This document shows positions 1 to 57,700 of a stretch of 64,000 bases of DNA, piece after piece; position 1 is the first letter of the stretch; every line of letters begins with the position of its first letter. A program made the position numbers and the translations under genes. The notes under the pieces were generated by a model. That model worked only from the letters and a program-made list of their open reading frames with translations. It was not told the origin of the DNA and did no database searches. Origin of the DNA: Styela clava (lineage: Eukaryota); the NCBI RefSeq assembly GCF_964204865.1, contig NC_135258.1, forward strand, positions 17,088,916 to 17,152,915, read 5' to 3'.

Positions 1-77
1 GGTGTTGTGTTTTAAGGCTGAGAGCGTCAATGAGCACAAAAACATTGTAATTTAGGTAAAGTATCGACGGTGTGAAA

Positions 78-286
78 CTAATTTTTTAAATTAAATGTAA
101 CTGTCACTGGAAGGTGGTCAGAGCCCGAACGAAGCGCTCGGTTCAAATTTTGATTATACTCGGAGCCATCAGACAGAGATGACATCAACTTCAAAAAACT
201 ACTGACATCCTTCCGGAAATTAGCTTTTTCATCTCCTAAATTTTTGAACAAAATATCCAACGCTCTCAAATGATGTTCTGCTTCTT
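78..286 (-). CDS. EEP-superfamily phosphodiesterase, terminal coding exon (includes stop TAG 78-80); encodes ...LRSGSDHLPVTVTFNLKN with the SDH catalytic motif
   Basis: Acceptor tgtttttcag|AA at 287-288. Phase fits the upstream exon (G|AA gives Glu). Open frame to the stop. SDHLPV is the canonical C-terminal EEP His motif. Confidence 0.55.
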
Positions 287-780
287 CTGAAAAACAAAAA
301 TGCTATGGCAATAAAAAAAAGTTTTATTACTATTTATTTTATTATTTATTATTTATAAAAAGTTTTAAATCATATCGTTCGAATCAAATCGTGAACGATA
401 TAAGTCGATTTCAAAGTCTCTCTATATCTAGACCTCCATTTATTTCAAAAAAATCCGTGGATTCTATGGAAATCGTTTTCGACTTTAAAGGTTTGTGTGA
501 TGATGTCTTCTAAAAAATTGTAATTAGCGCCTCATGCGGCGGTTCCGCTATGGCTAATTAGCGAACCGGATCAGCGAAATCAGAATAAGAAAGATTGTGG
601 GTACCCCAAAAAATTTGATACTACTCTGTTTTGGCCTTCGTTTTGATATATTTAAGTATTGATTTCTTGTTTAAACAAAATATTGAATAGTCTCCGACAA
701 GCTTGCGTCTTGCGAATTGCACTCAAATTTTTAAAATCTGAATACTACATTGGGAAGCCGCATTGGCAATAAATTCTTAC

Positions 781-1018
781 CCCTGTCCCCGGCCAGTATA
801 TTTGGAATAGTGAGGGATTTGAAGTCTACACGGCCACTTTCGATATCATCTTTCCTTGCAAATACTCGATCGAGAAATATCCCGTCGAAAGTTCGATTCA
901 AAGCTTTTGACACATGTGGAGTTGCATAAAAAAGGCTTAATATGTTGTCCGGTACATTCAGGGCCTGTTCAACAAAAATATCCGTGTTATCGTAGGTTAC
1001 CAAAACCAATATTTTCGA
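781..1018 (-). CDS. EEP phosphodiesterase internal exon (SKILVLVTYDNTDIFVEQ...RTFDGIFLDRVFARKDD...ILAGDR)
   Basis: Acceptor cgatgcag|TCG (AG 1019-1020) and donor G|GTAAGA (GT 779-780). Phase 0 in, phase 1 out. The FDGIFLDRVF motif resembles the F-D-R-I-F motif of TDP2-like EEP enzymes. Confidence 0.6.
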
Positions 1019-1562
1019 CTGCATCGAATGAATAAATCCGATAGTTACATTACAGTTAGGATAAATGAAGCATAGAGTTTTTATCGGTATTTAGAATTGA
1101 TGAAATATACTACATGACTGATGGCAACAGATGTAAAAAAATGTAAAGGTTTTATTTATTTTCCGAACATCAAAATTACGTTAGAAAATCAGAGAAGCTT
1201 TTTATTACAAAAACATTTTGCTGTAAATAATATATATATATATTGACTATCTGCAATACAATTACCATAAAGTGCCAATACTGATGTGTTTATATATTTT
1301 AGATGTAAATTAAAACAACATTGACAACTCAAAATACAGAAGTTTTATCAAATGTCAAAATAACGTTTTATGGATAATTGGAGAATGTTACAAATGTAAA
1401 ATTATTATAAATAAGTAATTTAAATTCCTCATTTTTGGCCTCGACAAAAGCTTTTGGGCAAATGTAGTCATTGACTTTGAGTAATGAATGACCTATTCAA
1501 ATCACTCTATATATCATAGCTTACGCTATTCTAAAATAGGATCGCGAAATATATAAACTTAC

Positions 1563-1721
1563 GGTTTTTGCGTCGACATATCCTAGGGAAGTAAGGTATT
1601 GCCATGCCGGATATCCGGTATCAGTGTTGAAATCTCCGGACAAAAATGTCAATGGTTTACCGTGTAAATTTTTCTCATGTTCATTGTATTGTTTTGTTAC
1701 CCATTCTACCATGCGATGTAC
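1563..1721 (-). CDS. EEP phosphodiesterase internal exon (VHRMVEWVTKQYNEHEKNLHGKPLTFLSGDFNTDTGYPAWQYLTSLGYVDAKT), carrying the GDFN catalytic motif
   Basis: Acceptor ttgttttag|GTA (AG 1722-1723). Donor ACC|GTAAGT (RC of plus 1558-1562 cttac). 159 nt, phase 0-0. Confidence 0.75.
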
Positions 1722-1813
1722 CTAAAACAAACATACAAAGGAGGCTTCAGAAAATTGAAAAAGAGAGAGCGAGAGAGAGAGGGATGGTGGGTAGAGAGAT
1801 GGAAAAAACTTAC

Positions 1814-2035
1814 TTGTCTTCTCCTGAGCAACGCATCTTTTAGTTCTGCATTGTGTTGTAAATGACAATTCATTACGGTTATTGGTGGCCCAATCAACGA
1901 TTCCTTTTGATGTGACATTTTTTTCATTCTAAATACCACTCCTAAAGCAAAATTTTTGTTATCAGAAAGAAGAACTTCTTCCGCTGATAATACCACAAAT
2001 TTACTCCTTTTGTAAAACGTTGATATTCCATTTTT
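1814..2035 (-). CDS. EEP phosphodiesterase internal exon (KNGISTFYKRSKFVVLSAEEVLL...GPPITVMNCHLQHNAELKDALLRRRQ), carrying the NxH motif
   Basis: Acceptor tattttcag|AAA (AG 2036-2037). Donor CAA|GTAAGT (RC of plus 1808-1813 acttac). 222 nt, phase 0-0. Confidence 0.75.
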
Positions 2036-2796
2036 CTGAAAATAATTTTTGCATTTTATTTTTATAATCTTATTCGCTTCATCGTTACCAACTGGGCGAA
2101 ATATTTACGCCAATTAAAGCAGACTTATCACATTTGTTTTCATATATACCAAAAACCAATGATGTTTCGTTACAGCCGAAATTGAAAAAACACAGAAAGA
2201 TATTTACAACAATTCAAATTTATCCGCTGGTAAATATCAAATTTATTATAAGTAAAAATAAATAGAATTACATCTATTTGCGAAACTATTTGCGCATTTA
2301 TATAAAACCTAAATATAAATCAAACAAAAATTATCATCATACGAACCACGTAGGTATCACTGCGTTCCACATATTCTTTCCAGTGTTCTTTTCCGTGCGC
2401 TGTGTGAGGTATTTCTGAATATACATCACGGATTGCTCTGGAAATAATTCTGTGAGTGTCATCTTGTGTCTGGATGGATATAAGAAGTTGAAAGTGCAAG
2501 TCAAAATTTGGTTGCAAAGATGTAGAATGTACACGTTTTCCGTAAATTGTTACTCAATAATCCGAAACATTCACCAAGAAATCAAAACTTTTTTTCTGGT
2601 ATTGGATGTTTACAGCGCTTATACAATGTGCAAAATATACTAGAAGTATTGTGAGTCCAACTTGAACAAAAAAAAGACGGATCTGTAATTAAAATTATGA
2701 CATATTTTCCTAAAGTGTATTTGACACAGAGGCAATTTTTTCAGTACCAAGAGATTAGCCAACATACTCAACTTCCCATATTTGCCCGGTACTCAC

Positions 2797-2979
2797 TTCT
2801 TGCAAGGTAACAATGTCAGCATCAATTCTTAATATTTCATGAGCAATCAGCTTCAATCTCATGTTAATATCAAGAAGATTCATGTCTACAATCCCAGTCT
2901 TTTTCAATTTTTCTTCTTCTACCCAAATTGGTGCCAGAACGTTCCACGTTAATATAGAGATTTCGTCTACCTTGTTCAA
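2797..2979 (-). CDS. EEP phosphodiesterase internal exon (NKVDEISILTWNVLAPIWVEEE...RIDADIVTLQE), with WNxLA and catalytic-Glu LQE motifs. It is preceded by an acceptor site, so a 5' exon exists upstream.
   Basis: In-frame upstream sequence is tcttttcatatatatttcag|TTG, with a TGA stop just upstream in frame, so this is an internal exon. Donor GAA|GTGAGT (RC of plus 2791-2796 actcac). 183 nt. Confidence 0.7.
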
Positions 2980-5900
2980 CTGAAATATATATGAAAAGAG
3001 TCATTTTCAACTAGTCTAGGCTCTCTAGAAGAATGGTTCTCAAACTTTTTGGGTGCCCTCTTAAGAAATTGCCATGCCACATTAAAATAACTAGCTAACA
3101 ATAAGCTGGAAAGACGAACGTAGTTTTCTTCAAAACATAGGTAAACATCTAAAATAAAGAAATGTAAATATCCCTAATAAGGCGGGCAAGATCAAATCTA
3201 ACAAACATTTTTCATTTTTAATTGGCTTCCCGCCATCTAAAAAATTTTCTGCGCCATCTCTAAAAATTTGTATGCCCCACCACTTGAGAATCACCGCAAT
3301 CGAATGACGGAGCATAATATGATAAATGGAAGATCGGAACGCTCTCTATATATTATTTCATATTACATGGAAATGTGACGTCATATTACTCGTTTTCAGT
3401 CGCGAGGAGTATAGGGCAATTTTTATATTCTGAAGAACAAGAAGTCTCCCTTGTCTTAGACTTTATCTTGTAACGATAGTGTGCACTTAACTGGGTGATA
3501 GAATTACAAAATATTTAAACATAGGTATTCACGCTGGACTCAAATCATAAGCGTTTTAGAGTGTTAGCCCACGTGACTTCTCTGCAGAAGCCGATCTTGT
3601 GCATATTCTGGTTTTGAGAAAAATTTCACCTAATACCGTCTTCATACGAAGCAAAAAGGTCTAATTGGGGCCTTTTGACGGGTAGTTTAACACATTTTTA
3701 TGGCTTATATAGCAAGTAACCCTGTTTAACCCTAAAACGATTGTAGGGTGATCAACTATATTTTGAATGTCGTGCATTCGGGCAACTACAAATTGATTTG
3801 TCGGGTATTCGACCATGGGGTATCCAATGGAATTGGTGTACGAGTGTACGGTCACTTCCATTACTGAAATTCTTTTTGTCGGTTAAGGTCTAAATGGAAG
3901 CGCCTTCAGATATCTGGACCTATCGTGTTTTATAATTGGTACACCGGATTCTTTCCGACGTGCACAGATGACTAAACTAATGGCCGAAGCTGTTGAAGAA
4001 AGTCGATATCCAATGGCATACTTTTAACTTAATTCTACCTTGTCGTCGTTTAACCACTTATAGGCGTGTGAACATAAAACTAGTAGGAAACTAGTAAAAA
4101 TAGTAGGAAATTTAGTATAATTTTGTAATAATATTTCACTCACTTCGATATTTTTCATGTAATGCGATGACCCATAAGCAAGCAGCATCAGTAGTTGAAA
4201 TCTAAACACGAAATTGTAAACTATAATTGCTATCTTCCAGTATTTTATATCATATAACAAGTTGTTAAATATGAAATTCATATTAACATATAACCCTTAT
4301 TATAGCGCACTGTTTGAAACAAGTTGCTTGGACAAGATAACATTGCATCCCACAAGTGAAAAGCGACAAGGCACGCTGCAGATTTGATCACTGATGTCTG
4401 AGAGAAAATACGATTTTTTGCTCAGCATGTTCACTTCTTTGTACTTAGTTATTTCTGACGTAACGACGCGTTTTGTTCCACTTTCTGGTGTAATGCATAA
4501 CCCATACTCTCGGAAAATATGTGTGGAGCACTATATAGAAAATATTCTAAAAATGCTTCGCAGCGTTCTATGAATATTTTTTAGTATTTTAAAGATTTTA
4601 GTTTACATTTTCCCACTTCCGAACTGTTTGAATAAATTTAAGGTAATATCTAACCCTGACGTTATTGTTGAATATGTGCCAAATGACTTACCTATCTTTG
4701 TTGTTATTGTTTAGCGGTAGCCTCAATGCTTTAGAACGTTTCGATTCATACTTGAAAAAAAAAAAATTTAGTTAACTATGGTTATTACAACTTTTAAATA
4801 TAAACAAATATTCTGATATTTGAACTACCTTTAATCCGCAGACGATATAACTCATCCAAACTATAACAACAGATATCACTGAAAACCTAAAGTTAGAAAC
4901 AAAACAAAATGACGTTAATTTTTGGACCACATTCTAAGTTTATTTTATTGAACTTTTTTTAAAAAGTTTTTAAAGCAACTTTTAATTCAGTTTTCGTAAA
5001 AAAGAAAATTGAGCATATTCTACATCTACATTTTTCTACTTATTTCAGAACATCCCAAAAGTGATCAAAAGATATTGCCAAATTTACCCTTCCAAACAAA
5101 ACAAAATTGAATAAAAAAAATTTCTGGAATATTCAATTTGAAGCTCGTTTCAAATACTCTTACCTCATGCTTTCTGCGCCACAGTTTGCCAGACGTCGCC
5201 AATCTACTCTAATTATATTTAATTAGTACTGTTTATATTAGAACAATTTTCTGCTCTTCTAAATATGAACTATGACACGTTCTAATGAGTGCCTAGCGGC
5301 GAACGTAGATGGATTTGGAAATTACCAAAAACAGAACGCCGTCATTTGTCAATTTTAAAGGATTCTCACGATTAGCATAATGGTATAAAACTGGAACAAG
5401 ACTGAAATTTTAATCACTCATTTCAACTTCCATTTATCTTATACTTAAGTTTCATTTAATACACATCATGCTCTAGAAAATATGTAGACTTCAATCTTTT
5501 GATAATAAATTTATTCTCTCTAACTTATGGTAAAATAAATTTATCTTTCGATCAAAATAGCACGTTTATAGTTATCGATTTTTATCGAAAATTCCGCTGT
5601 CGTTCGTATGCACTTACAGCGCCATTACAACAATACAGTGGGTGTAGTCTCAGTTATTTATATCCGGATGTTGTAATCTAAAGTAATTCGTATTGAGTCA
5701 ATATAACGAGCATGGACACTTCCATTTAGCGATTCATCACTACAATATTATTTTTCAATCATTTCATTTCAATTATTTTTGAACATTTTGCCCAGTTTTG
5801 ATAACAAGTGGATATAAAATGTTTGCAATGCTAACAATATAATGATAGGACCTATGGCAAGTTGTTAAAGTGTTAAAAATTATCATCTTTCACTTAAAAT

Positions 5901-7873
5901 CAAGTTTTAAGAAGCAAATTTCTTTTCGGGCCCATCTATAGTTTACCTTTACTTTAATCGCCATACGGTTTGACTTATCAGAAGTTATCAGAGCAGACTC
6001 GATTGCAAGTACTCATTTTAATATTTCTCCTTTCTGTTGAACTAAGATGTGAAAGTATTTTCGAAATCTTCACACTTTAAAAATATACCTCACATCAACT
6101 TTAGACCCCAGCACTCCCATGTAAATGAGTTAGTTATCTTGAGCGATTTCCCTATTTTATACAGATACGATAATTCTTGACACTATTGATTCGTGAAACA
6201 CAGCTCCGCCTATACTACAGCAACACTATTCATTATGATATTCTAAACCTATGCTGACAGTCAAAATATTTATGTTCATCTTGAGATTCATATTTTCATT
6301 CAAAGTAATAATATTAAATCCGATAAAACGAGAGAGAAGAGAAATAGTAGAGAAACAGAAAAAATCACGAAGAGCTACAGAGATAACTTTGAAAGAGTAT
6401 TCAACAAATGCAATTTTTCATGGAAAAAACATTCAAATTCTTTTAAAACCCAATTGTAATTAAAACGTATTAAACAGCATCAACGTGCGAACTGTAGAAT
6501 ATATTGCGCATTTTTCTGTTTCGTAATATAGTAGCAAAATGAAAAAAATGCACAGATATTTATAGTTTTATGTCGATTTCGATCAAGATAGGCAAATGAT
6601 CTGATCCCATTCGAAAAACACGATTGACATTCGTATCATATTCTGATCCATCTTTCGATATTTCATATAAATTTGAGAAGGATGCAGATTTCAGGCGAAA
6701 ACTGATTACATTGGTATATCCCAGGAGTGAGCAACATTTTTTAGTATAAGAGCCGCATACCGCAAAACAGAAACATGTGAGAGCCGCATAATTTTTGAAA
6801 TTAATAATACTGTATCAGAATACCGTGAAGTGAAAAGAACTTTACACAAACGTATAATGACAATATTGCAAAGTGTATATTCTTCAAACGATTAATGAAT
6901 TAAAAAAACAAAAAATTGTTACGCTACAGTTTCTTTTAGTTTGAATAATATATAATTATTGCCAGCGAGAAGAGCCGCATAAAAACTCCGGCAGGCCGCA
7001 TGTGTCTCGCGGGCCGCGGTTTGCCTACCGTTGGTGTATCCTCTAACTCGACTTCGATGTAGTTTTCTTTATCTAAAAATATTAAATTGAAAATAAAATA
7101 TTTGACTTCAAGTATGAAATTAGGTTTATTGATTTGTTAGGTATTTCAATTTGTCATACAATTTTAGCCATTATGTTTATGGAAATGGAAAGAGGTATTT
7201 ACATATTAGTTTAAATTAAATCACCAATAATTGTTGTATCATTATTTATTCAATGTTCAACTGAAAAGTTTATAAAAACAAATATGCAAATAGATATAAA
7301 TCTTACTTAGAAGATCAGATTTAATATCAGGTATCACGACGGATAAAATTTTGATTAATTCATTTGTCATGTCCGACCCACGTATGAATGTATGATCAAT
7401 AGGAATTTCAGTTCAAACTCCCAAACCAGGAATAAGAAATGGTACGGGATAGAAAAATGTATCCTTTCCAGTTCCAGACTCCTATGAAATACAAAAAGAT
7501 AACTTGTCACATGCTACTCAAGAAAATAAATTTAAAATTATCAACTTAAATTCAATAATATGTTCTCTTTCGAAATGTTAGTAATTTCTCCGGTTTGTTC
7601 AAGAATTATCAGTTTATATAAATATCAATACCAATTGAATTTCATGTTTTGATTCCTTGCATACTTATTATTGCTCTAATTTTTATGATATGTTTTTTAT
7701 TCTAATAACAATTTCCAGTTAATTGTCAAATATGACATGTATGGCAGATTGACCAGGGCGAGCTTCCATTATGTTTTAGATTGATACACTGGTAATTGTT
7801 TTAAATGGAATATTAATTAATATATTGTTACATTTGTATCCGAGACGGTATTACATAGACTCAATTGACTCAC

Positions 7874-9447
7874 CAGTAGAACATCTACATATATGTTGTC
7901 AAGAAAACTTGTGGAAGCAGGTAACTGATTTCCAGTGTTCATGTCTCCCGTAATCATAACGATTGGAATAGAAGTCGGAATCCTAGTTTTGATTCCTGTA
8001 TATATCCTCTTCGCCTCTTTCATCATTACAAGGCTCTTAAAATAAACAGCTTCGAGTTAAAAACAAAAAACAGTGATGTGACTCTGCGTCGTATTAGTAT
8101 CACCGGGATTTCAAATTCATGAATAATTATATTTCCACTTTAATCTTGTAATTGCTACCAGAGTAAGAATTTTACGGGTCAACATTGTGTTGATATATTA
8201 AGTGCTTATTCTATTTCAACACAATGCCGTTCATGACTGATGGACTATTCTACATAGAATGGGGATGGTGACACGCAACAAGAGAAAGAGAGTTTTTGCT
8301 GTTATTCAGGTTACCTGACTGACTCTAACTTTGATCTGATTCGCCGAATACCCAGTTTCCAGAAGACAATTAATAATTATAACTGGGTTTCCTCTTTGCC
8401 TCGGAGATGTTTCTAGTGAATATGCATTTGTTTTTGGCCTCAGAACTGAAGCTAGAGCCACATTTCCAGATGGGCTGGAAACGTATTGTGCCCAACAAGT
8501 GAAAACTTCTTCCATTTGTAAAATATGGCAACTCCGTTTCCTGAGAATAGTAAGCAGGTTATATATACGTGAGTTGGGTGTTAATTTACGATGAGAAGGT
8601 TTGTTTTCATACTCCACGTTCACGAAATATTTCTCCAAAAGTTTCTCAAAACAGAGCCGGGAACCGCGATAAAAGTTGACATAAATACGGGAAAACATAT
8701 TAGCCTCATAAGATACTCTAAATATTCTTCTAAATATTGATAAGTTGATAGCGAACGCTCCAGCTATAGGAGAGAATGGTGTTTTCGCATTACAGGCAAC
8801 AACAATAAAAATATTTGGGCAAAACGACCATAGAACAATTTCCTGAAAAAATCATACTGTCTCTATGAATACAGAAAAAATTCTGTAAAGCACAGCAAAG
8901 ATCTTACAGACCAGTCAGTTCGGTAGATTAAAATATTTTACAACATAGGTTGTGTCGTTAGACAAGTATGATCCCCATAATTATTTTCGTATGGTGCGAA
9001 CGCAACTGGTCTATAATACCGCGGTAGGCCCCCTATTCGTTTTTTGATTTTCAGCCTGGACTTGCAAAAAATTACTATTTGTGACATAAATAAATGAATA
9101 TTAAATCGACAATAGTGTTGTTAAGAGCAGTATTGGCTTCGAAAATAAGCGAAATGGAAGAGACAAGACATATGAAAAGAAAAAAGAGCAAGAAAGAAAT
9201 GAGAGAATGAAATGAAAAAAAAAATAACTACAAGATAAAATAGAAAATAGATAATGATCAACCAAAACTACCTCTTGCAGTGTGACAATATCTGCGTTTT
9301 CGTAATCTCCGAAGAAATTAATTTAAGTCGAATATCATTATTGAGAAAATTCATGTCCCAAAAATTCCCAATCGCCATCATTCCGGGTCTATCTACCCAT
9401 ATTGGTGCTAATATATTCCATGGAAGATGAGATATACTCACAGTATT
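7874..9447 (-). pseudogene. Tandem paralog of the EEP phosphodiesterase gene, likely decaying. Exon homologs at 9272-9447, about 8315-8540 and 7874-8035.
   Basis: Translations parallel the intact copy: NTVSISHLPWNILAPIWV...ENADIVTLQE; ...NPVIIINCLLETGYSANQIKVRVSQ; ...IPIVMITGDMNTGNQLPASTSFLDNIYVDVLL|gtgagt. Exon lengths of 176 and 226 nt give frameshifts against 183 and 222 nt in the intact copy. The NCHL catalytic His is replaced by Leu (NCLL). Donor is weak (GTAGTT). Confidence 0.5.
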
Positions 9448-12400
9448 CTGAATTAGTAAAAATGCGTAATACCCATGCCAAATGGGAATTCATATTATCA
9501 GTGAACGATTTCGAATAGAATTGCATTAATCTATTTCCATTCAAGCAGTGGCAAAACTTCTTGAGACAAAACAAATTCGTTACCCGACAATTATTGTGAT
9601 ATTTATCTTTGCAGTTTTATCAGATATTGACTATGTTCTAACGATAGCTAACAAATACACTTGCTATTTTATGGAAAAAGATAATGTTATTCCTATTTAT
9701 CTCTTAATATTATCTTGTTTAAGTATCATTGTGACAACGAACACATACGGATGCGAAGTAGGAAGTAGATGAAAACAAAAATGACCTGCAGTTCAATGTA
9801 CAATATCTAAGTACTCCATGTAATTTTTCATTATTTACATCGCCTAATCGATTTCCGCATCTACATCAGGCGATGGCATAGTGATTTGAGTTTCGAACTG
9901 CGTTGGGTTGGGGTTTCAATTTAAAGATCTCTGAATAAAAAATCTCATCTTAAGCACATCAACCAGGACGGGTTAAGTAATACCGAACGGGAGAATACTG
10001 GCTTTTCTAGTATCAGTGGTTATTTGGCCAGAGCCTTATGTAAAGTGAAGGTCGAAACGTTTCGCAAAGTAAAATTCTTACCCGTATCGAGTCTTCCGAA
10101 AGACAATGGACGAAAATAAGAGCAAACACTATTAATTACCAAAGGTGACCTGGAAAACGTTTAGAATAGCAACTGACAACAATCATAACATATTCTATCA
10201 GTCATAGTCTGTATCAGTAATACTATTAGGATTGTTGTAAAAATAAATCATTTGCCAGTTGCCATCGGGAATGGATAGGGAGTTAGTCTGACTGATAGTT
10301 ATATATATTTACAAATTTAAACTTATATGAATAATTTGGTAGATACCTAATATTCCATTTTAGGTTCAAAGATAGCCAAAATCGTGAACGGGTGTTTGAA
10401 CTTATCACCACGCACTACCCACGCTACGAATAACAATTCGAAAATAGACTTACCTCATTCTAGCATAAAACTGGAATTTTCTTCCCTATAATATTATAAT
10501 GTATTAGTAATTATCTGAAAAATAATTGATAATACTGGTATATATGTTTCGCTCATAGACGAAGTGGGGCGAATGAGCTCATGCAAGATCCGACGGAGAG
10601 AATGACACAGGCACATAAGACAGGCCATACAATTCGATTTCAGCAAAAAAATAATCCATATTCGTACATCTCTGAAAGCTAAAATCTGCATGAATTCAAA
10701 TTGAATGGGATGTGCCTTAAATAGTTGCTGATAGTCTGCTGCAATAACATCTTATCATTACGTATAATGTACAATGTATATAGTCCCCCTTTTTAAAATA
10801 CCAATTGTTTTTAAATGTTTGTTTACGGTTTGACCTAATTCATTTCGCATTTTCAGCTCTTATTGTGTAGGTAATTACTACACTTCTTGGTGTTATTTAA
10901 AGAGATTTGGCATTAAAATTTATTTGCTATTAAATTTTATGATTAAAGAATCGTAAGGAGAAAACAATGAACTTAATGAATGAACTTAAACGCACGAAGG
11001 TCTGTAGTTTAAAATCAGAATGCGCGTCAAATCGGTCTCGACAACACGGTTTAGTTATCTCATGTATATATGAAAATCTAGTTTTAAGCCATATATGTGT
11101 TTAATTAACAATCTCATATATAAAACACAGCACAACTTAATCTCCCCAAAATTGACGTGAACGCCGGGTTGTTTTATTGATGAATCCAACAGTCGAATGC
11201 CCCACTGTATTTGAGAACAAAATGAAGGTATATAGTCATAGTACATAATGTATCCAATTAAACCAGATTGTTTTGACGTTAAAATATTTCATATTAACGT
11301 GCGTTACTTTCGAGAGAGTCTCTAAGAGTCCGCTAATTATTAAACTATACGAGAATCACACTTTCGCAATATATATAATATATATACATTTGACGTGGAT
11401 TAACTTGTAGATGTTTATGGGACAATGTTTATTTATTTTATTCAAATGCGAGTTTGCACCAGAAACGACAAACAACGCTATAGACAAGCAGCCACTGGTA
11501 CATAACAAGACACTATTTTCGGACGAATTTAAATCTGTGTGCTTGGGGATTGCAACTCAATATATTAAACACTGGGTGATACGGTGGGCATAGGATGCAG
11601 CCATCGGGACTAGCGTTATAATCTTTGAAAATGCCATAACGCTCGCGTATATACTTTCATATGTACAGAGTGAGTGAAAACACCATAGTCAACTGTTCTC
11701 ATGAAAATGTAATCATGCATCTACCCCGGAATAATATCCGGTTAATGCCACTGAAGTTAGATTATTATAAGTTTGGTTAGGTGATTGCCGCACTTTCATT
11801 TGTATATCTTAGTGGGAAATTATTATTAATGAAACAGACAAATATAGATGGTTAAATCATCTAACCTATAAGTTATTCTAACCGAATTATTCTAACCGAA
11901 GAGTTGGCGGAGGGGAGATAACATGATAGTGCACTAATACGTATTGCCCTTCTTTTTGTTTTTTAGCCATAACCTAGACATTGAACATCCGGGCTTCATT
12001 GAGTCAGCTAATATATAAATATGTGGGTGAAAAGGCAACTCTAGAACAATAGCCTCCGTGATCAACACATATTGAATACCGGCAGTTGCGCATATATATT
12101 TAATGAAGTGTTTCAGCATTACTGAAAACTTAGTAAAAAGCAACAATAATCGAATGACAAAGCCAAGAATTTGGCTTTTAAGAATTTAAGTTTGATGCTC
12201 ATCTGTAATTTTAATTACAACTCACACTGGCATTATAATTTGATATCGTTTCTTGTTTAAAATGCCTCTTGTTACTTTCTACTGTCAAATTCATCCCTAT
12301 ATCGATATTGAATTATTTTGTCCAACATAGGCTACCGACATACCACAATCTGTTTTTAAAGTTACCTGCCTAGAGGTTGGAACCTACTGTTACACTTCCT

Positions 12401-14234: not shown

Positions 14235-15656
14235 ATGAACAAGAAAATTGTGGTTCGAAATATCTGCATGGGACTATTTTTCTTCTTCAGCGGAGTAGAA
14301 TATGCTGTGATTTTACCGACTTTGAATGGATATCTTATAACGTTCGATGCAAAACAGAGCTTTTTAGGACTCGTCTTGGCTGCATTCAGCTTCTCTGGAA
14401 TGATATCTGCTCCCATTTACGGTATAATCGCAGACAAAACAAGATCGACAAAATTGTGTGTTATCGTTGCAAATTGTTTTGAAATATTGGGTAATATCCT
14501 ATACTTTACTAGTACAAATGAGTACATGGTGTTAGGTGCAAGACTTATTGCCGGAATTGGTTCAGGCGCAGCTTCATCTATATTTGGCATGATAGCCAGG
14601 ACAACTACACCTGAAGAGCGTACGAGCGTGTTTTCACTCCTTATGTCATTGCGACAGATAGGAATGATAGTGGGACCAGCGTTTAATATATTTCTACACG
14701 TTTTGGACTTTTATATTGGAAAGTTTCATATCAACGAGTATACATCTCCTGGATTTTTGATGACTATAATATGGTTTCTTCATAGTGTCTTATTGATAAT
14801 TGTGTATAAAGACGAAGATGAGAAAAGGCAAAAGATAGAAGAAACGCCGACTGTTGATGGAGTGGTTGAAATATCTGGCGATGGAGCAACGGGAGTTCGT
14901 GAGGAAGTCAGAACGAAACGTGCACCCTCAATGCTTGAGAATAAGAAAGTCAAGAGTTTTGTAAATGAATTCCTTCGAGAAGAAATTGTCATCTGCCTGT
15001 TTGCTACTTTCTTTGTCATGTTTGCTCAAACGGGCCTGGAAACTGCTGCAGCACCAATGACCCTGCTGTTTTTTGGTTGGGGCGGATTAGAAAATAGTTA
15101 CTTATTTTGCGCCGGGTCTGTAGTCGTAGTTTCCAGTTTTGTAGCTTTGAGCTTTTTAAGTAAAAAATTCTCGGATCGGCAACTAGTACTATTCGGATGT
15201 ATTGGTATGATAGCTACATATATCATGTATTTTGTTTACTCAGCTGTTCTGTCGTACGCAGAAAAATACGATGGTAACCCGAAAGATTGTCCAACATGGC
15301 TACTTCCAGTTTTTGCCATAAATATAACAATGCTGACCATTGCGGTGCCTTTTCTCTGGGTTCCACAAGCATCGCTATTTTCGAAAATTACCAGTAAAGA
15401 AACTCAGGCTTTTAACCAAGGAGTAAGAATGGTGACATTACGCATGGGTCAAATTATCGGTCCCATATGGGCTTCCCCTATGACAACAATAGATAGAATG
15501 CCTATTATGCTTGCCGTAGATTTATTTCTTACATGTATGCTGACTACAATGGTTTACCTCTCATACAATCGACTTCAACCATTAGAAGATTTACCAAAAT
15601 TGGATCAAAGCGAGGATGAAGAAAAAACTCCGTTATTGGGGGCAATAAACGACTGA
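14235..15656 (+). CDS. MFSD8: Major facilitator superfamily transporter, MFSD8/CLN7-like, 473 aa, apparently single-exon
   Basis: Uninterrupted 1422-nt ORF. About 12 hydrophobic segments. MFS motif A in loop 2-3 (GIIADKTRSTK). Long acidic central loop. Local similarity to MFSD8 blocks as recalled from memory (SFLG..V.A.S.G....P..G..., YM.....L.GIG.G, ERTS, IN.YT.P motif). The TATA-like tttttatagg sits about 20 nt upstream of the ATG. The MFSD8 assignment rests on memory, not a search. Confidence 0.8.
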   Translation: MNKKIVVRNICMGLFFFFSGVEYAVILPTLNGYLITFDAKQSFLGLVLAAFSFSGMISAPIYGIIADKTRSTKLCVIVANCFEILGNILYFTSTNEYMVLGARLIAGIGSGAASSIFGMIARTTTPEERTSVFSLLMSLRQIGMIVGPAFNIFLHVLDFYIGKFHINEYTSPGFLMTIIWFLHSVLLIIVYKDEDEKRQKIEETPTVDGVVEISGDGATGVREEVRTKRAPSMLENKKVKSFVNEFLREEIVICLFATFFVMFAQTGLETAAAPMTLLFFGWGGLENSYLFCAGSVVVVSSFVALSFLSKKFSDRQLVLFGCIGMIATYIMYFVYSAVLSYAEKYDGNPKDCPTWLLPVFAINITMLTIAVPFLWVPQASLFSKITSKETQAFNQGVRMVTLRMGQIIGPIWASPMTTIDRMPIMLAVDLFLTCMLTTMVYLSYNRLQPLEDLPKLDQSEDEEKTPLLGAIND

Positions 15657-42224: not shown

Positions 42225-43045
42225 CGACTTATACTTCCGTTGGTAGTCCCAGTAATCAATAACCATACGTTTCATGTTGATATGTGTTCAAAGCTGGCAA
42301 TCCTTGTTACTCCCAGTAATCATACAATTCATGTTGATACGTGTTCGAACCCGCAATCTTTGGTAGTCCAAGTAACCATACAATTCATATTCATAAGTGT
42401 TCAAAGCTGGCAATTCTTGGTAGTCCTAGAAACCACGCGTTTCATATTGATAAGTGTTCGAAGCTGGCAATATTTGGTAATCCAAGTAACCATACAATTC
42501 ATATTGAAAAGTGTTCGAAGCTGGCAATCCTTGGTAGTCCAAGTAACCATACGATTCATATTGATAAGTGTTCGAAGCTGGCAATCCTTGGTAGTCCAAG
42601 TAACCATACAGTTCATATTAATAAGTGTTCGAAGCTGGCAATCTTTGGTAATCCAAGTAACCATACAATTCATATTGATAAGTGTTCGAAGCTGGCAATT
42701 CATGGTAGTCCAAGTAACCATACGATTCATATTGATAAGTGTTCGAAGCTGGCAATTCATGGTAGTCCAAGTAACCATACAATTCATATTGATAAGTGTT
42801 CGAAGCTGGCAATTCATGGTAGTCCAAGTAACCATACGATTCATATTGATAAGTGTTCGAAGCTGGCAATCCTTGATAGTCCAAGTAACCATACAGTTCA
42901 TATTGATAAGTGTTTAAAGCTGGCAATTCTTGTTAGTCCAAGTAACCTTACTATTCATATTGATAAGTGTTAGAAGCAAGTAATCCTTGGTAGTCACTGT
43001 AATCATATGTTTCATGTTGATAAGTGTTCGAAGCTGGCAATATTC
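42225..43045. repeat. Minisatellite, 57-bp unit (aagctggcaatccttggtagtccaagtaaccatacaattcatattgataagtgttcg), about 14 tandem copies
   Basis: The motif aagctggcaa recurs at 57-bp spacing (42461, 42518, and so on through 43031). Degenerate relatives of the unit flank the array (41980-42200, 43230-43480, 40340). Confidence 0.9.
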
Positions 43046-48789: not shown

Positions 48790-51700
48790 AATTCTTACGA
48801 TTTACGTTATTCTTATATTTTTATTGCTGTTATTATATGTTACTGATTTGTGAATTATATTATTGTTTATTACTGATATTGTATATTTTAATGAGCTTTT
48901 TTGTAATATGCAGTTTCCATATCTTATTTATATCTATCTTATTTGCTGTAGTCATTATTTTCTATTGTATTTTTTGAGATATTTTCAACAGGAAAACAAG
49001 ATATCGTGCCAACGACAATGGAAGAAAAGTATTAACAGGGCTTGCCATAGCTTTTTTTGAATATTTTTTCATTGTAGATAGATTTAGACCCATCCCCGCC
49101 ATTAGGAATAATAGGGATTTTATTAGGCTTAGATATTTTTAATGTTATTCTAGCTTCTCAGGCACAGAACTATGAAGACACTGGAAAAATCAAGAAAATA
49201 CGAATAGAAGGAAAATCTACAAATTACATGTAAATATTTTTTAAATTTTAGGAGACTTAGGTATTTTTAATGGTATTCTAGCTTCTCAGGCCCAGAATTA
49301 TGAAGAAGTGAGAAAACGACTGATACAAGGAAACAATGAAGAAATTAAGAGAAAACTGAAACAAGGAAAATCTACAAATTGAATGTAAATATTTTTTACA
49401 AATTTTATTAGGCTTAGATATTGTTAATAATATTTTAGCTTCTCAGGCACAGAATTTTAAAGGTACTGAAGAAATTGAAAGAAGACGGAGCCAGAGACAA
49501 ATACCGGTAAATATGTTACATTTGTTTCATTAGGCAGACTTACTATTTCCATTTAGTGTTCATTTCCATTTTAATTCGATATAATATTTTTCTGATTATA
49601 TTATTACTGACACAATAATGCACAAAGTATTATGTTTATTGCTGGCATTCAATATTTATTTAATAAAGCTTTTTTTAGTAATATGCTGTATCCATACTTA
49701 CCTATCTTATTTGTTATAATCAATATTTTCTCTTCTATTTTTGAGATATTTTCAACTGGAAACGATATCGTGACACCAACAAAAGAAGAAAAGTATTAAC
49801 AGGGCTCGCTATGGCTTTTTTGTTTTTAATATTTTATTTGTTATAGATAGATTAGTCCCAATCCCTCCATTAAAAATAATAGGGTTTTTAATAGGCTTAG
49901 ATATTTTTAATGTTATTCCAGCTTCTCAGGCACACAACTATGAAGACGCTGGAAAAATCAAGAAAAGACGAATAGAAGGAAAATCTACAAATTACATGTA
50001 ACCATTTTTCGAATTTTATGTGGCTTAGATATTTTTAATGGTATTCTAGATTCTCAGGCACAGAATTATGAAGAAGTAAGAAAAAAGACTGATACAAGGA
50101 AACAACGAAGAAATTAGGAAAAAACTGAAACAAGGAAAATCTACAAATTGAATGTAAATATTTTTACAAATTTTATTAGGCTTAGATATTGTTAATAATA
50201 TTTTAGCTTCTCAGACACAGAATTTAAAAGGTACTGAAGAAATTGAAAGAAGACGGAATCAGAGACAAATACCGGAAAATTTGTTACATTTGTTTCATTA
50301 GACAGACTTACTATTTCCATTTAGTGTTCATTTCCATTTTAATTCGATATAATATTTTAGATAGGGCTTAGATTTAGGCTTAGATATATTTAATGTTATT
50401 CTAGTTTCTCAGGCACACAACTATGAAGACACTGGAAAAATCAAGAGAAGACGAATAGAAGGAAAATCTACAAATTACATGTAAATATTTTTCGAATTTT
50501 ATGAGGCTTAGGTCTTTTTAATGGTAATCTAGCTTCTCAGGCACAGAATTATGAAGAAGTAAGTAAAAAGACTGATACAAGGAAACAATGAAGAAATTAG
50601 GAAAGAACTGAAACAAGGAAAATCTACAAATTGAATGTAAATATTTTTACAAATTTTATTAGGCTTTGATATTGTTAATAATATTTTAGCTTCTCAGGCA
50701 CAGAATTTTAAAGGTACTGAAGTAATTGAAAGAAGACGGAACCAGAGACAAATACAGGTAAATATGTTACATTTGTTTCATTAGGCAGACTTACTACTTC
50801 CATTTAGTGTTCTTTTCCATTTTAATTCGATATAATATTTTTCTGATTATATTATTACTGATGCAATAATGCACCAGGTATTATGTTTATTGCTGGCATT
50901 CCATATTTATTAAGAAAGCTTTTTTTGGTAATATGCTGTATCCATACTTACCTATCTTCTTTGTTATAATCAATATTTTCTCTTCTATTTTTGAGATATT
51001 TTCAACTGGAAACGATATCGTGACACCAACAAAAGAAGAAAAGTATTAACACGGCTCGCCATGGCTTTTTTGTTTTTAATATTTTATTTGTTATAGATAG
51101 AATAGTCCCAATCCCTTCATTAGGAATAATAGGGTTTTTAATAGGCTTAGATATTTTTAATGTTATTCTGGCATCTCAGGCACACAACTATGAAGACACT
51201 GGAAAAATCAAGAAAAGACGAATAGAAGGAAAATCTACAAATTACATGTATGAGGCTTAGATCTTTTAAATGGTAATCTAGCTTCTCGGGCACAGAATTA
51301 TGAAGAAGTAAATGAAAAGACTTATACAAGGAAACAATGAAGAAATTAGGAAAAGACTGAAACAAGGAAAATCTACAAATTGAATGTAAATATTTTTACA
51401 AATTTTATTAGGCTTTGATGTTGCTAATATTTTCTTAGCTTCTCAGGCACAGAATTTTGAAGGCACTGAAGAAATTGAAAGAGGACGAAACCAGAGACAG
51501 ATCTAAAATACCGGTAAATTTGTTCCATTAGGCAGGCTGACTTTTTCCATTTAGTGTTCATTTTGATTTTATTTCGATATAATATTTTTCTAATTATATT
51601 ATTACTGATACAATAATGCACCAAGTATTATATTTATTGCTGGCATTTAATATTCATTAATAAAGCTTTTTAGTAGTATGCTGTATCCATACTTGCCTAT

Positions 51701-54700
51701 CTTATTTGTTATAATCATTATTTTCTCTTCTGTTTTTGAGATATTTTCAACTGGAAATGATATCGTGACACCAACAAAAGAAGAAAAGTATTAACAGGGC
51801 TCGCCATGGATTTTTTGTTTTTAATATTTCATTTGTTATAGATAGATTAGTCCCAATCCCTCCATTAGGAATATTAGGGTTTTTAATAGGCTTAGATATA
51901 TTTAATGTTATTCTAGTTTCTCAGGCACACAACTATGAAGACACTGGAAAAATCAAGAAAAGACGAATAGAAGGAAAATCTACAAATTACATGTAAATAT
52001 TTTTCGAATTTTATGAGGCTTAGATCTTTTTAATGGTAATCTAGCTTCTCAGGCACAGAATTATGAAGAAGTAAGTAAAAAGACTGATACAAGGAAACAA
52101 TGAAGAAATTAGGAAAGAACTGAAACAAGGAAAATCTACAAATTGAATGTAAATATTTTTACAAATTTTATTAGGCTTTGATATTGTTAATAATATTTTA
52201 GCTTCTCAGGCAAAGAATTTTAAAGGTACTGAAGAAATTGAAAGAAGACGAAACCAGAGACAAATACCGGTAAATATGTTACATTTGTTTCATTAGGCAG
52301 ACTTACTATTTCCATTTAGTGTTCATTTCCATTTTTATTCGATATAATATTTTTCTGATTATATTATTACTGATACAATAATGCACCAAGTATTATGTTT
52401 ATTGCTGGCATTTCATATTTATTAAGAAAGCTTTTTTTGATAATATGCTGTATCCATACTTACCTATCTTCTTTGTTATAATCAATATGTTCTCTTCTAT
52501 TTTTGAGATATTTTCAACTGGAAACGATATCGTGACACCAACAAAAGAAGAAAAGTATTAACACGGCTCGCCATGACTTTTTTGTTTTTAATATTTTATT
52601 TGTTATAGATAGAATAGTCCCAATCCCTCCATTAGGAATAATAGGGTTTTTAATAGGCTGAGATATTTTTAATGTTATTCTGGCATCTCAGGCACACAAC
52701 TATGAAGACACTGGAAAAATCAAGAAAAGACGAATAGAAGGAAAATCTACAAATTACATGTATGAGGCTTAGATCTTTTAAATGGTAATCTAGCTTCTCG
52801 GGCACAGAATTATGAAAAAGTAAAGAAAAGACTTATACAAGGAAACAAGGAAGAAATTAGGAAAAGACTGAAACAAGGAAAATCTACAAATTGAATGTAA
52901 ATATTTTTACAAATTTTATTAGGCTTTGATGTTGTTAATATTTTCTTAGCTTCTCAGGCACAGAATTTTGAAGGCACTGAAGAAATTGAAAGAGGACAAA
53001 ACCAGAGACAGATCTAAAATACCGGTAAATATGTTACATTTGTTCCATTAGGCAGGCTGACTTTTTCCATTTAGTTTTCTTTTTGATTTTATTTCGATAT
53101 AATATTTTTCTAATTATACTATTACTGATACAATAATGCACCAAGTATTATATTTATTGCTGGCATTTAATATTTATTAATAAAGCTTTTTAGTAGTATG
53201 CTGTATCCATACTTGCCTATCTTATTTGTTATAATCATTATTTTCTCTTCTGTTTTTGAGATATTTTCAACTGGAAACGATATCGTGACACCAACAAAAG
53301 AAGAAAAGTATTAACACGGCTCGCCATGACTTTTTTGTTTTTAATATTTTATTTGTTATAGATAGAATAGTCCCAATCCCTCCATTAGGAATAATAGGGT
53401 TTTTAATAGGCTGAGATATTTTTAATGTTATTCTGGCATCTCAGGCACACAACTATGAAGACACTGGAAAAATCAAGAAAAGACGAATGGAAGGAAAATC
53501 TACAAATTACATGTATGAGGCTTAGATCTTTTAAATGGTAATCTAGCTTCTCGGGCACAGAATTATGAAGAAGTAAAGAAAAGACTTATACAAGGAAACA
53601 AGGAAGAAATTAGGAAAAGACTGAAACAAGGAAAATCTACAAATTGAATGTAAATATTTTTACAAATTTTATTAGGCTTTGATGTTGTTAATATTTTCTT
53701 AGCTTCTCAGGCACAGAATTTTGAAGGCACTGAAGAAATTGAAAGAGGACAAAACCAGAGACAGATCTAAAATACCGGTAAATATGTTACATTTGTTCCA
53801 TTAGGCAGGCTGACTTTTTCCATTTAGTTTTCATTTTGATTTTATTTCGATATAATATTTTTCTAATTATACTATTACTGATACAATAATGCACCAAGTA
53901 TTATATTTATTGCTGGCATTTAATATTTATTAATAAAGCTTTTTAGTAGTATGCTGTATCCATACTTGCCTATCTTATTTGTTATAATCATTATTTTCTC
54001 TTCTGTTTTTGAGATATTTTCAACTGGAAACGATATCGTGACACCAACAAAAGAAGAAAAGTATTAACAGGGCTCGCCATGGATTTTTTGTTTTTAATAT
54101 TTCATTTGTTATAGATAGATTAGTCCCAATCCCTCCATTAGGAATAATAGGGTTTTTAATAGGCTTAGATATATTTAATGTTATTCTAGTTTCTCAGGCA
54201 CACAACTATGAAGACACTGGAAAAATCAAGAAAAGACGAATAGAAGGAAAATCTACAAAAAACATGTAAATATTTTTCGAATTTTATGAGGCTTAGATTT
54301 TTTCAATGGTAATCTAGCTTCTCAGGCACAGAATTATGAAGAAGTAAGTAAAAAGACTGATACAAGGAAACAATGAAGAAATTAGGAAAGAACTGAAACA
54401 AGGAAAATCTACAAATTGAATGTAAATATTTTTACAAATTTATTAGGCTTAGATATTGTTAATAATATTTTAGCTTCTCAGGCACAGAATTTTAAAGGTA
54501 CTGAAGAAATTGAAAGAAGACGAAACCAGAGACAAATACCGGTAAAAATGTTACATTTGTTTCATTAGGCAGACTTACTATTTCCATTCAGTGTTCATTT
54601 CCATTTTTATTCGATATAATATTTTTCTGATTATATTATTACTGATACAATAATGCACCAAGTATTATGTTTATTGCTGGCATTCCATATTTATTAAGAA

Positions 54701-57700
54701 AGCTTTTTTTGGTAATATGCTGTATCCATACTTACCTATCTTCTTTGTTATAATCAATATTGTCTCTTCTATTTTTGAGATATTTTCAACTGGAAACGAT
54801 ATCGTGACACCAACAAAAGAAGAAAAGTAATAACACGGCTCGCCATGGCTTTTTTTGTTTTTAATATTTTATTTGTTATAGATAGAATAGTCCCAATCCC
54901 TCCATTAGGAATAATAGGGTTTTTAATAGGCTTAGATATTTTTAATGTTATTCTGGCATCTCAGGCACACAACTATGAAGACACTGGAAAAATCAAGAAA
55001 AGACGAATAGAAGGAAAATCTACAAATTACATGTATGAGGCTTAGATCTTTTAAATGGTAATCTAGCTTCTCGGGCACAGAATTATGAAGAAGTAAAGAA
55101 AAGACTTATACAAGGAAACAATGAAGAAATTAGGAAAAGACTGAAACAAGGAAAATCTACAAATTGAATGTAAATATTTTTACAAATTTTATTAGGCTTT
55201 GATGTTGTTAATATTTTCTTAGCTTCTCAGGCACAGAATTTTGAAGGCACTGATGAAATTGAAAGAGGACGAAACCAGAGACAGATCTAAAATACCGGTA
55301 AATATGTTACATTTGTTCCATTAGGCAGGCTGACTTTTTCCATTTAGTGTTCATTTTGATTTTATTTCGATATAATATTTTTCTAATTATATTATTACTG
55401 ATACAATAATGCACCAAGTATTATACTTATTGCTGGCATTTAATATTTATTAATAAAGCTTTTTAGTAGTATGCTGTATCCATACTTGCCTATCTTATTT
55501 GTTATAATCATTATTTTCTCTTCTGTTTTTGAGATATTTTCAACTGGAAACGATATCGTGACACCAACAAAAGAAGAAAAGTATTAACACGGCTCGCCAT
55601 GGCTTTTTTGTTTTTAATATTTTATTTGTTATAGATAGAATAGTCCCAATCCCTCCATTAGGAATAATAGGGTTTTTAATAGGCTTAGATATTTTTAATG
55701 TTATTCTGGCATCTCAGGCACACAACTATGAAGACACTGGAAAAATCAAGAAAAGACGAATAGAAGGAAAATCTACAAATTACATGTATGAGGCTTAGAT
55801 CTTTTAAATGGTAATCTAGCTTGTCGGGCACAGAATTATGAGGAAGTAAAGAAAAGACTTATACAAGGAAACAATGAAGAAATTAGGAAAAGACTGAAAC
55901 AAGGAAAATCTACAAATTGAATGTAAATATTTTTACAAATTTTATTAGGCTTTGATGTTGTTAATATTTTCTTAGCTTCTCAGGCACAGAATTTTGAAGG
56001 CACTGAAGAAATTGAAAGAGGACGAAACCAGAGACAGATCTAAAATACCGGTAAATATGTTACATTTGTTCCATTAGGCAGGCTGACTTTTTCCATTTAG
56101 TGTTCATTTTGATTTTATTTCGATATAATATTTTTCTAATTATATTATTACTGATACAATAATGCACCAAGTATTTTATTTATTGCTGGCATTTAATATT
56201 TAATAATAAAGCTTTTTAGTAGTATGCTGTATCCATACTTGCCTATCTTATTTGTTATAATCATTATTTTCTCTTCTGTTTTTGAGATATTTTCAACTGG
56301 AAACGATATCGTGACACCAACAAAAGAAGAAAAGTATTAACAGGGCTCGCCATGGATTTTTTGTTTTTAATATTTCATTTGTTATAGATAGATTAGTCCC
56401 AATCCCTCCATTAGGAATAATAGGGTTTTTAATAGGCTTAGATATTTTTAATGTTATTCTAGTTTCTCAGGCACACAACTATGAAGACACTGGAAAAATC
56501 AAGAAAAGACGAATAGAAGGAAAATTTACAAATTACATGTAAATATTTTTCGAATTTTATGAGGCTTAGATATTGTTAATGGTATTCTAGCTTATCAGGC
56601 ACAGAATTATGAAGAAGTAAGAAAAAAGACTGATACAAGGAAACAATGAAGAAATTAGGAAAAGAATGAAACAAAGAAAATCTACAAATTGAATGTAAAT
56701 ATTTTTACAAATTTTATTAGGCTTTGATGTTGTTAATATTTTCTTAGCTTCTTAGGCACAGGATTTTGAGGGCACTGAAGAAATTGAAAGAAGACGAAAC
56801 CAGAGAAAAATCTAAAATACCGGTAAATATGTTCCATTTGTTCCATTAGACAGGCTGACTTTTTCCATTTAGTGTTCATTTTGATTTTAATTCAATATAA
56901 TATTTTTCTAATTATATTATTACTGATACAATAATGCACCAAGTATTATGTTTATTGCTGGCATTTAATATTTATTAATAAAGCTTTTTATAGTAATATG
57001 CTGAATCCATACTTACCTATTTTATTTGTTATAATCAATATTTTCTCTTCTATTTTTGAGATATTTTCAACTGGAAACGATATCGTGACACCAACAAAAG
57101 AAGAAAAGTATTGACACGGCTCGCCATGGCTTTTTTGTTTTTAATATTTTATTTGTTATAGATAGAATAGTCCCAATCCCTCCATTAGGAATAATAGGGT
57201 TTTTAATAGGCTTAGATATATTTAATGTTATTCTAGTTTCTCAGGCACACAACTATGAAGACACTGGAAAAATCAAGAAAAGACGAATAGAAGGAAAATC
57301 TACAAATTACATGTAAATATTTTTCGAATTTTATGAGGCTTAGATCTTTTTAAATGGTAATCTAGCTTCTCAGGCACAGAATTATAAAGAAGTAAGTAAA
57401 AAGACTGATACAAGGAAACAATGAAGAAATTAGGAAAGAACTGAAACAAGGAAAATCTACAAATTGAATGTAAATATTTTTACAAATTTTATTAGGCTTA
57501 GATATTGTTAATAATATTTTAGCTTCTCAGGCACAGAATTTTAAAGGTACTGAAGAAATTGAAAGAAGACGAAACCAGAGACAAATACCGGTATATATGT
57601 TACATTTGTTTCATTAGGCAGACTTACTATTTCCATTTAGTGTTCATTTCCATTTTTATTCGATATAATATTTTTCTGATTATATTATTACTGATACAAT

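Follow-up and report, generated by a model that had tools for sequence, protein, structure and literature searches.

A 64,000-nucleotide stretch of the genome of the ascidian Styela clava (contig NC_135258.1, forward-strand positions 17,088,916 to 17,152,915; this whole stretch is called the window below, and positions are counted from its first letter) carries two neighbouring genes of the endonuclease/exonuclease/phosphatase (EEP) type. We consider it very likely that they are ancient tandem paralogs, of which copy A (RefSeq LOC120339383) is a working gene, while copy B (RefSeq LOC120339384) belongs to an old lineage and is now an unprocessed pseudogene. Both genes lie on the minus strand of AT-rich DNA (GC ~0.33), with copy B lying 5′ of copy A, and tblastn with the exon peptides of A detected these two homologous copies and no third one in the 64 kb. 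An earlier note, made from the letters of the sequence alone, had described a tandem same-strand pair of homologous EEP genes here, one intact and the other decaying. The pair was confirmed both by tblastn and by a family profile, and the contrast between its members is supported by the exact match of A to a known protein and by the lesions of B described below. Both loci outlined in the note are real, but their extent was understated, as the coding sequence (CDS) of A occupies 5168–78 and B at least 9447–6560. The gap from the last stop of B to the start codon of A is only ~1.4 kb. No mention of the four LOC identifiers of the family was found in a literature search.

Copy A and its protein

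The CDS of A (1260 nt) is spread over 10 coding exons between a start codon (ATG) at 5168 and a stop codon ending at 78, with GT-AG borders at all introns, and once spliced it is residue-for-residue identical to XP_039263427.2 (P0001), a protein of 419 aa named ‘uncharacterized protein LOC120339383 [Styela clava]’. The start codon sits in a very short exon 1 (5164–5168), which reads ATGAG and is followed by the GT donor. Exon 2 (4829–4886) encodes RFSVISVVIVWMSYIVCGLK, the hydrophobic N-terminus, which would be either a signal peptide or an anchor in the membrane, and is followed by exon 3 (4692–4750) and exon 4 (4144–4201), whose RFQLL... segment is also kept in the related proteins P0003 and P0004. 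The conserved motifs begin in exon 5 (2797–2979, 183 nt), which contains WNVLAPIW with Asn73 and ADIVTLQE with Glu121. Exon 6 (2347–2469, 123 nt) is read in a frame backed by homologs, while exon 7 (1814–2035, 222 nt) encodes the NGISTFYK strand and the NCHL motif with His220. Exon 8 (1563–1721, 159 nt) provides the GDFN motif (Asp266, Asn268) and exon 9 (781–964, 184 nt) the FLDRVF motif (Asp321). Exon 10 (78–286, 209 nt) adds a helical insert specific to tunicates, followed by the GSDHLPV motif (Asp407, His408), and closes with the stop codon TAG. For exon 9 RefSeq uses the acceptor at 964, and there is an in-frame alternative at 1018. The model of A in the earlier note contained the last six exons, with the alternative acceptor 1018 used for the ninth, and missed the four 5′ exons; the exons 2979–2797 and 2035–1814 were given there with the correct lengths (183 and 222 nt), GT-AG junctions and consistent phases. 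An alternative frame for exon 6 (MTLTELFPEQSVMYIQKYL) was also considered and is ruled out by the splice phases, the RefSeq protein and the homologs.

The protein matches Pfam PF03372 (Exo_endo_phos) with 32.9 bits against a cut-off of 24.5 (E = 7e-8). Its catalytic and metal-binding residues follow each other in the order N73, E121, H220, D266/N268, D321 and D407/H408, all in columns that are invariant or near-invariant in an 18-sequence family alignment, so that the retention of the EEP catalytic motifs proposed in the note holds for the full residue set. The AlphaFold2 model of A built from this alignment has a mean pLDDT of 78.7, with 179 residues at or above 90. The first 24 residues are hydrophobic and residues 5–24 form a helix in the model, in which the N-terminal 60 residues as a whole comprise this hydrophobic helix and a low-confidence linker. 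The helical insert, ~45 aa long and placed ahead of the final Asp-His motif (around residues 347–400), is of lower confidence as well and is not found in the bacterial relatives discussed below. Signal-like N-terminal segments also start P0003, P0004, P0008 and P0011. Since the N-terminus of A is hydrophobic and its relatives begin with segments resembling signal peptides, the proteins of this family are probably secreted or lumenal. As judged from its sequence, A is a working gene with a complete EEP fold, and its product would be an enzyme that depends on Mg2+, a phosphodiesterase or phosphatase, with a phosphate ester of a nucleic acid or nucleotide as substrate and the secretory pathway or the extracellular space as its place of action.

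Exons, lesions and annotated products of copy B

Copy B was reconstructed with a profile of six family members, searched against all minus-strand stop-to-stop segments between 12.5 and 5.0 kb (the frames f1 and f2 are labelled relative to one fixed origin). The hits form a colinear minus-strand chain, with five segments at E = 2e-13 to 4e-5, a homology far above chance level. The chain starts with 9444–9292 (f2, profile positions 48–97, E = 2e-13) and 9301–9269 (f1, 96–106, E = 0.089), continues with 9027–8977 (f2, 118–134, E = 17), 8977–8942 (f1, 135–146, E = 0.85), 8541–8479 (f2, 147–167, E = 0.003) and 8479–8309 (f1, 169–219, E = 1e-7), and proceeds to 8020–7877 (223–267, E = 2e-6), to 7460–7428 and 7406–7314, which share a frame and flank a stop (276–286 and 295–325, E = 36 and 4e-5), and finally to 6706–6566 (354–400, E = 1.6e-11). 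The homolog of A exon 5 (9272–9447, 176 nt) has LPWNILAPIWV and ADIVTLQE in different frames and ends at a GTAGTT donor. It is followed by the homologs of exon 6 (8942–9060, 119 nt, also matched by P0005 in tblastn), exon 7 (8315–8540, 226 nt, with IIINCLL where A has TVMNCHL), exon 8 (7874–8035, 162 nt, in frame, with GDMN instead of GDFN) and exon 9 (7307–7481, 175 nt, with the PIDHTFIRG motif and a phase 1 donor as in A). The 3′ part of the terminal exon (6560–6721) reads ...DGSEYDTNVNRVFRMGSDHLPILIEIDIKL and ...GSDHLPILIEIDIKL up to the stop, contains the SDH motif and closes with TAA at 6562–6560. A tentative 5′ stub of this last exon is found at 7041–7072 (KENYIEVELE, with a phase-1-compatible acceptor); it is suggested by phase and by a weak E-x-Y-I/V likeness to P0005 and P0003, with a profile score of only −2.5 bits. 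The exon lengths of 176 nt (9447–9272) and 226 nt (8540–8315), neither a multiple of three, and the GTAGTT donor after 9272 agree with the earlier description.

Five junctions of B fall at the alignment positions of A and, once the homologous frames are used, have the phases of A as well (0, 0, 0, 0 and 1). These shared intron positions and phases identify B as a DNA-level duplicate, not a retrocopy. After repair of its frames B matches PF03372 with 40.5 bits (E = 3.4e-10), and since it passes as a Pfam EEP domain the reconstruction appears sound. Another candidate for the exon 6 homolog, within the open reading frame (ORF) 8843–8590 (an ‘IFRRIFRVSYE’ likeness, with a 49-nt intron 8589–8541), was rejected, as the profile and P0005/P0003 place this exon at 9060–8942. 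Homologs of the signal-peptide exons of A were not identified for B, either with profile positions 1–47 up to 12.5 kb or within 3 kb upstream. Mapping of P0059 places the upstream exons of the older RefSeq transcripts of B within 9785–10153 on the minus strand (about 10153–10083 and 9934–9785). The exon at ~9934–9785 contains a stop in the present assembly in a three-frame view, and the hydrophobic stretch LIVFALIFVHCLS in exon 10153–10083 is in a frame without a start codon and is preceded by a stop.

The lesions are distributed over most of the reconstructed gene. A 1-nt frameshift at 9297/9296, in an A4 run, parts LPWNILAPIWV...SSEITK from ADIVTLQE. Another at 8977/8976 (TAT|GGGG) lies inside ...FAPYENNY|WGSYLSNDTTYV, and with one base added there the profile scores 19.2 bits over positions 118–146, compared to −0.2 and 3.1 bits for the separate halves. 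At the next exon the acceptor 8541|8540 leaves 2 nt (8540–8539) before NGVAIFYK although the preceding donor is in phase 0, and a further 1-nt frameshift at 8479 parts ...FSLVGHNTF from SSPSGNVALASVL...; repair lifts the score of exon 8540–8315 to 45.5 bits, from 10.4 and 24.8 bits for its two pieces. Further downstream an in-frame TGA (7415–7413) stands upstream of PIDHTFIRG, with the profile matching the same frame on both sides. There is no AG between this TGA and the IDH motif, therefore splicing cannot bypass it. The codons for N, E, D-x-N, D and D-H remain in B, but in broken frames, and a CTT (Leu) at 8365–8363 stands in place of the catalytic His. This His-to-Leu change, which the earlier note had read from IIINCLL versus TVMNCHL, is real in the present assembly, but the older RefSeq release reads NCHLE and so the change is allelic, not fixed. 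An open full-length frame for B, which would have refuted the earlier note, was sought by spliced reconstruction and not obtained, as four 1-nt repairs would be needed and the in-frame TGA and a disrupted last exon would still be left.

The disruption of the last exon is due to ~320 bp of unrelated DNA (6722–7040, minus strand) in the place where its 5′ third is expected. Within this segment AAGAGCCGCATA occurs three times, and there is a palindromic core rich in GC (GGCCGCATG...CGCGGGCCGCGG). The segment is probably an insertion, a reading which depends on the tentative 5′ stub, and might be part of an ascidian repeat that has not been catalogued. A second copy was not found in the window. 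We also considered a miniature inverted-repeat transposable element with terminal inverted repeats and rejected it, because the best inverted-end alignment was matched or exceeded by 258 of 500 shuffles.

RefSeq treats LOC120339384 as protein-coding, with four isoforms of an ‘uncharacterized protein’. What do these models encode? Isoform X2 (P0061) starts within 9447–9272, passes the first frameshift (...SSEITKTQILSHCKR), uses the GTAGTT donor and splices 9272 to 8540, where it enters out of frame (KRSCHILQMEEVF...) and regains the ancestral frame only past 8479. Exon 9060–8942 is skipped by P0061 and also by P0059. Isoform X1 (P0058) has its start in an intronic 181-codon ORF (8851–8309). The intronic part of this ORF (8541–8851, minus strand) has no family or Pfam match, is open in both releases and is coding in X1. 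No Pfam domains were found in the annotated products of B (P0058 and P0059 lack a PF03372 match). The annotated products also lack the N-terminal Asn and Glu motifs and the C-terminal IDH and SDH motifs, and therefore these ORFs cannot form an EEP domain. The spliced gene models in RefSeq indicate that B is probably still transcribed, and its annotated products would then be the longest leftover ORFs of pseudogene transcripts.

The alternative that B encodes a functional truncated or neofunctionalised protein of 143–204 aa, for example a catalytically dead regulator as the earlier note had offered, appears improbable to us. It could draw on the protein-coding status of B with its several spliced isoforms, and on ORF 8851–8309, which is unusually long for DNA of 35% GC and open in both releases. 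Against it, without the N- and C-terminal parts of the fold the products could not build the EEP beta-sandwich, and they contain no Pfam domain; as much as half of each ORF either stems from intron sequence or reads the NGVAIFYK strand out of frame. The stop of B lies 106 nt upstream of the exon 7′–8′ junction, where it would be a typical trigger of nonsense-mediated decay. Finally, 9 of 204 residues vary between releases, three of them in the non-homologous part.

It is less probable still that B is intact in the animal as a functional second enzyme and that its frameshifts are homopolymer errors of long reads. The four frameshifts would all be mended by one added nucleotide and adjoin short runs (A4, TT/G4, A3, T3), as long-read errors do, and the published S. 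clava assembly was made from PacBio RS II reads with Illumina correction (PMC7540406). The comparison of releases argues otherwise. The isoforms of the current release (P0058, P0061, P0062 and P0063, 143–204 aa) are 100% identical to the window wherever mapped, while the proteins of the older release (P0059 and P0064) differ from the current ones at 6–9 residues, including L112H, and so come from another haplotype or assembly. Nevertheless all six isoforms, old and new, end at ...PGLGV, that is at the TGA, and both releases have a single open frame across 8479. Since the TGA and the 8479 frameshift are common to the older release, these two lesions are unlikely to be assembly errors, and the TGA is in any case a substitution, not an indel. 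The ~320 bp that interrupt the terminal exon are likewise hard to attribute to read errors. The CDS of A, at a distance of 5 kb, contains 26 homopolymer runs of at least 4 nt and zero frameshifts, and RefSeq neither flagged nor mended B as a low-quality protein but gave truncated ORFs only. The note's escape via sequencing errors is therefore largely closed. Between the two releases, 9 of the 419 residues of A (P0001 versus P0060) and 9 of the 204 of B (P0058 versus P0064/P0059) are changed, in line with the high heterozygosity of 1.72% reported for S. clava (PMC7540406).

Some observations do weigh against reading B as a pseudogene. Frameshifts 1–3 are attested in one assembly only, and the uniform need for one extra nucleotide next to short homopolymers fits the error pattern just described. 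The amino-acid divergence between releases is 4.4% for B and 2.1% for A, a difference of only ~2-fold and based on small numbers. The probability of ORF 8851–8309 arising by chance is roughly 1e-4 for its non-homologous part, so that a residual or new coding role is possible for this segment.

Age of the duplication

At the protein level, 31% of positions are identical between A and repaired B. Repaired B is closer to P0005 (37%) and to P0003 (34%), proteins that come from transcript-sized contigs of other sequencing runs. At the DNA level A and B can be aligned only in the WN...LQE exon (exon 5), at 65%. In a neighbour-joining tree (276 columns, 300 replicates) B groups with P0005 with 96% bootstrap support, the tunicate clade receives 87%, and A and B were grouped together in 0 of 300 replicates. 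The identity of 31% and the grouping of B with P0005 indicate that the tandem duplication is ancient. Across ADIVTLQE, read directly from the two genes, all differences between A and B are synonymous, which argues for long purifying selection on both copies. B therefore seems to be a long-conserved old paralog that was inactivated comparatively recently. No intact S. clava copy of its lineage turned up in the family searches. The two copies lie side by side in one orientation with common intron positions, as expected of a young tandem duplicate decaying soon after duplication, but in the face of the identity, alignment, tree and synonymous differences given above such an origin of B is hardly credible, short of an extreme acceleration of its rate, and the ‘snapshot of pseudogenisation after tandem duplication’ proposed in the earlier note does not hold.

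The likely course of events, then, is that B arose long ago by duplication at the DNA level and was under selection for most of its history. This selection would have kept its motifs conserved and would explain why its closest relative is found in another dataset (P0005). B would then have become an unprocessed pseudogene, with four frameshifts, the TGA, the disrupted terminal exon, loss of any recognisable signal-peptide exon and, on the present haplotype, the Leu codon. It resembles other unprocessed pseudogenes that are annotated as coding, as it likewise retains introns, frameshifts, a nonsense codon and spliced models with leftover ORFs. In contrast to the typical case, however, the parent of B is not its neighbour A; B is a dead member of an old lineage.

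Relatives, surroundings and implications

The family is narrow. Single-sequence HMMER (phmmer) gave only 50 matches at E ≤ 1e-3 among 1.84 billion cluster representatives. The close ones are S. clava LOC120326684, Ciona intestinalis LOC104265579 and unnamed transcript contigs, the rest being metagenomic proteins of ~250–350 aa. The names CCR4, ANGEL and nocturnin are absent from these 50 matches, the named ones being tunicate proteins and metagenomic EEP hydrolases. S. clava LOC120339383, LOC120339384 and LOC120326684, Ciona LOC104265579 and the transcripts of other datasets make up the tunicate family as understood here.

Placement among characterised EEP enzymes depends on whether sequence or fold is compared. 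Against PDB sequences the family profile matches Nocturnin (9e-22), ANGEL2 (2.6e-18), Ccr4 (2.9e-18), PDE12 (2e-17) and CNOT6L (4e-16), with TDP2 (6e-13) ranked behind these and also behind CNOT6, ~9 orders of magnitude below nocturnin. With the single sequence of A, ANGEL2 is the sole EEP match in the PDB and TDP2 is not found at E ≤ 1. A Foldseek search of the PDB with the model of A gave 103 matches at E ≤ 1e-3, and EEP enzymes account for every one of the 50 listed. Here TDP2 has the lowest E-value (2.3e-14), with nocturnin at 1e-13 and CNOT6L within one order of magnitude. The target-normalised TM-score of TDP2 is 0.71–0.75, while its query-normalised score is 0.46, compared to 0.51–0.53 for nocturnin and CNOT6L. 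The fold search thus cannot tell TDP2 from nocturnin or CNOT6L, while by sequence profile the family appears nearest to nocturnin, ANGEL2 and CCR4. NCBIfam gives sub-threshold matches only, to extracellular nuclease families and ExoIII. A UBA domain was not found in A, for which Pfam gives PF03372 only. Since this domain is absent and other enzymes are closer in sequence than TDP2, the label ‘TDP2-like’ used in the earlier note fits the fold, where TDP2 is on top though nearly tied, but not the family. A, with its hydrophobic signal-like N-terminus, is not a TDP2 ortholog although it shares the EEP fold with it.

The tunicate proteins share with CCR4-type enzymes the order of the catalytic motifs (N, E, H, D-x-N, D, D-H), and the tunicate profile reaches vertebrate ANGEL2 before any other named family. 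They differ in having a signal-like N-terminus, in place of the leucine-rich repeats, mitochondrial targeting segments or cytosolic N-terminal regions of CCR4-type enzymes, and in the ~45-aa helical insert before the SDH motif. Uncharacterised bacterial EEP hydrolases, from metagenome-assembled genomes (MAGs) of Acidimicrobiia and other Actinomycetota, share the motifs WN(V/I)LA.(P)W, LQE, GDFN, (I/L)DH and GSDHLPV with the tunicate family; they are ~250–290 aa long and intronless, with neither the signal-like extension nor the C-terminal helical insert. P0002, of this bacterial type, is 28–29% identical to A. With a two-sequence bacterial alignment as query, 14 MAG loci in Acidimicrobiia/Actinomycetota (L001–L014) confirmed the bacterial genomic origin of this type. 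EEP proteins of ~280 aa encoded in MAGs carry the WNVLAAPW...GSDHLPVTV signature of the tunicate family. The tunicate profile scores bacterial-type proteins at 83–91 bits and vertebrate ANGEL2 at 58 bits, a hint of microbial affinity. It is conceivable, though on balance we think it unlikely, that an early tunicate gained the family, as a secreted EEP enzyme, by horizontal transfer from a bacterium or other microbe and not from CCR4, ANGEL or nocturnin. If so, introns, signal peptide and helical insert would have been gained later, followed by the tandem duplication, and B would be one lineage that was lost.

Elsewhere the window contains several features apart from the pair. An intronless ORF of 473 codons (14235–15656, plus strand) encodes a Major Facilitator Superfamily transporter (Pfam MFS_1, E = 1.3e-34), and a single-exon gene of such size is unusual amid the surrounding intron-rich genes. 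At 42260–43041 there is a 57-bp tandem repeat (13.7 copies, 87% matches) with three open frames of 166–225 codons, which might represent either a minisatellite or a coding exon of repetitive sequence. The region 49200–64000 (plus strand) is a satellite-like head-to-tail array of at least 18–20 copies of a 750–770 bp unit, mostly 95–99% identical, which runs past the end of the window; it has the lowest GC content (0.28–0.30) and a steady positive GC skew.

An intact gene beside a decayed paralog is an ordinary outcome, and the case has no bearing on any long-standing open question. Its practical consequence is a correction of the annotation, as LOC120339384 is best described as an EEP hydrolase gene that has become an unprocessed pseudogene. 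More generally, it illustrates that the adjacency of genes does not imply a recent duplication. The family itself is mildly interesting, being small and secreted-looking and without a characterised member, and its nearest relatives outside the tunicates appear to be microbial.

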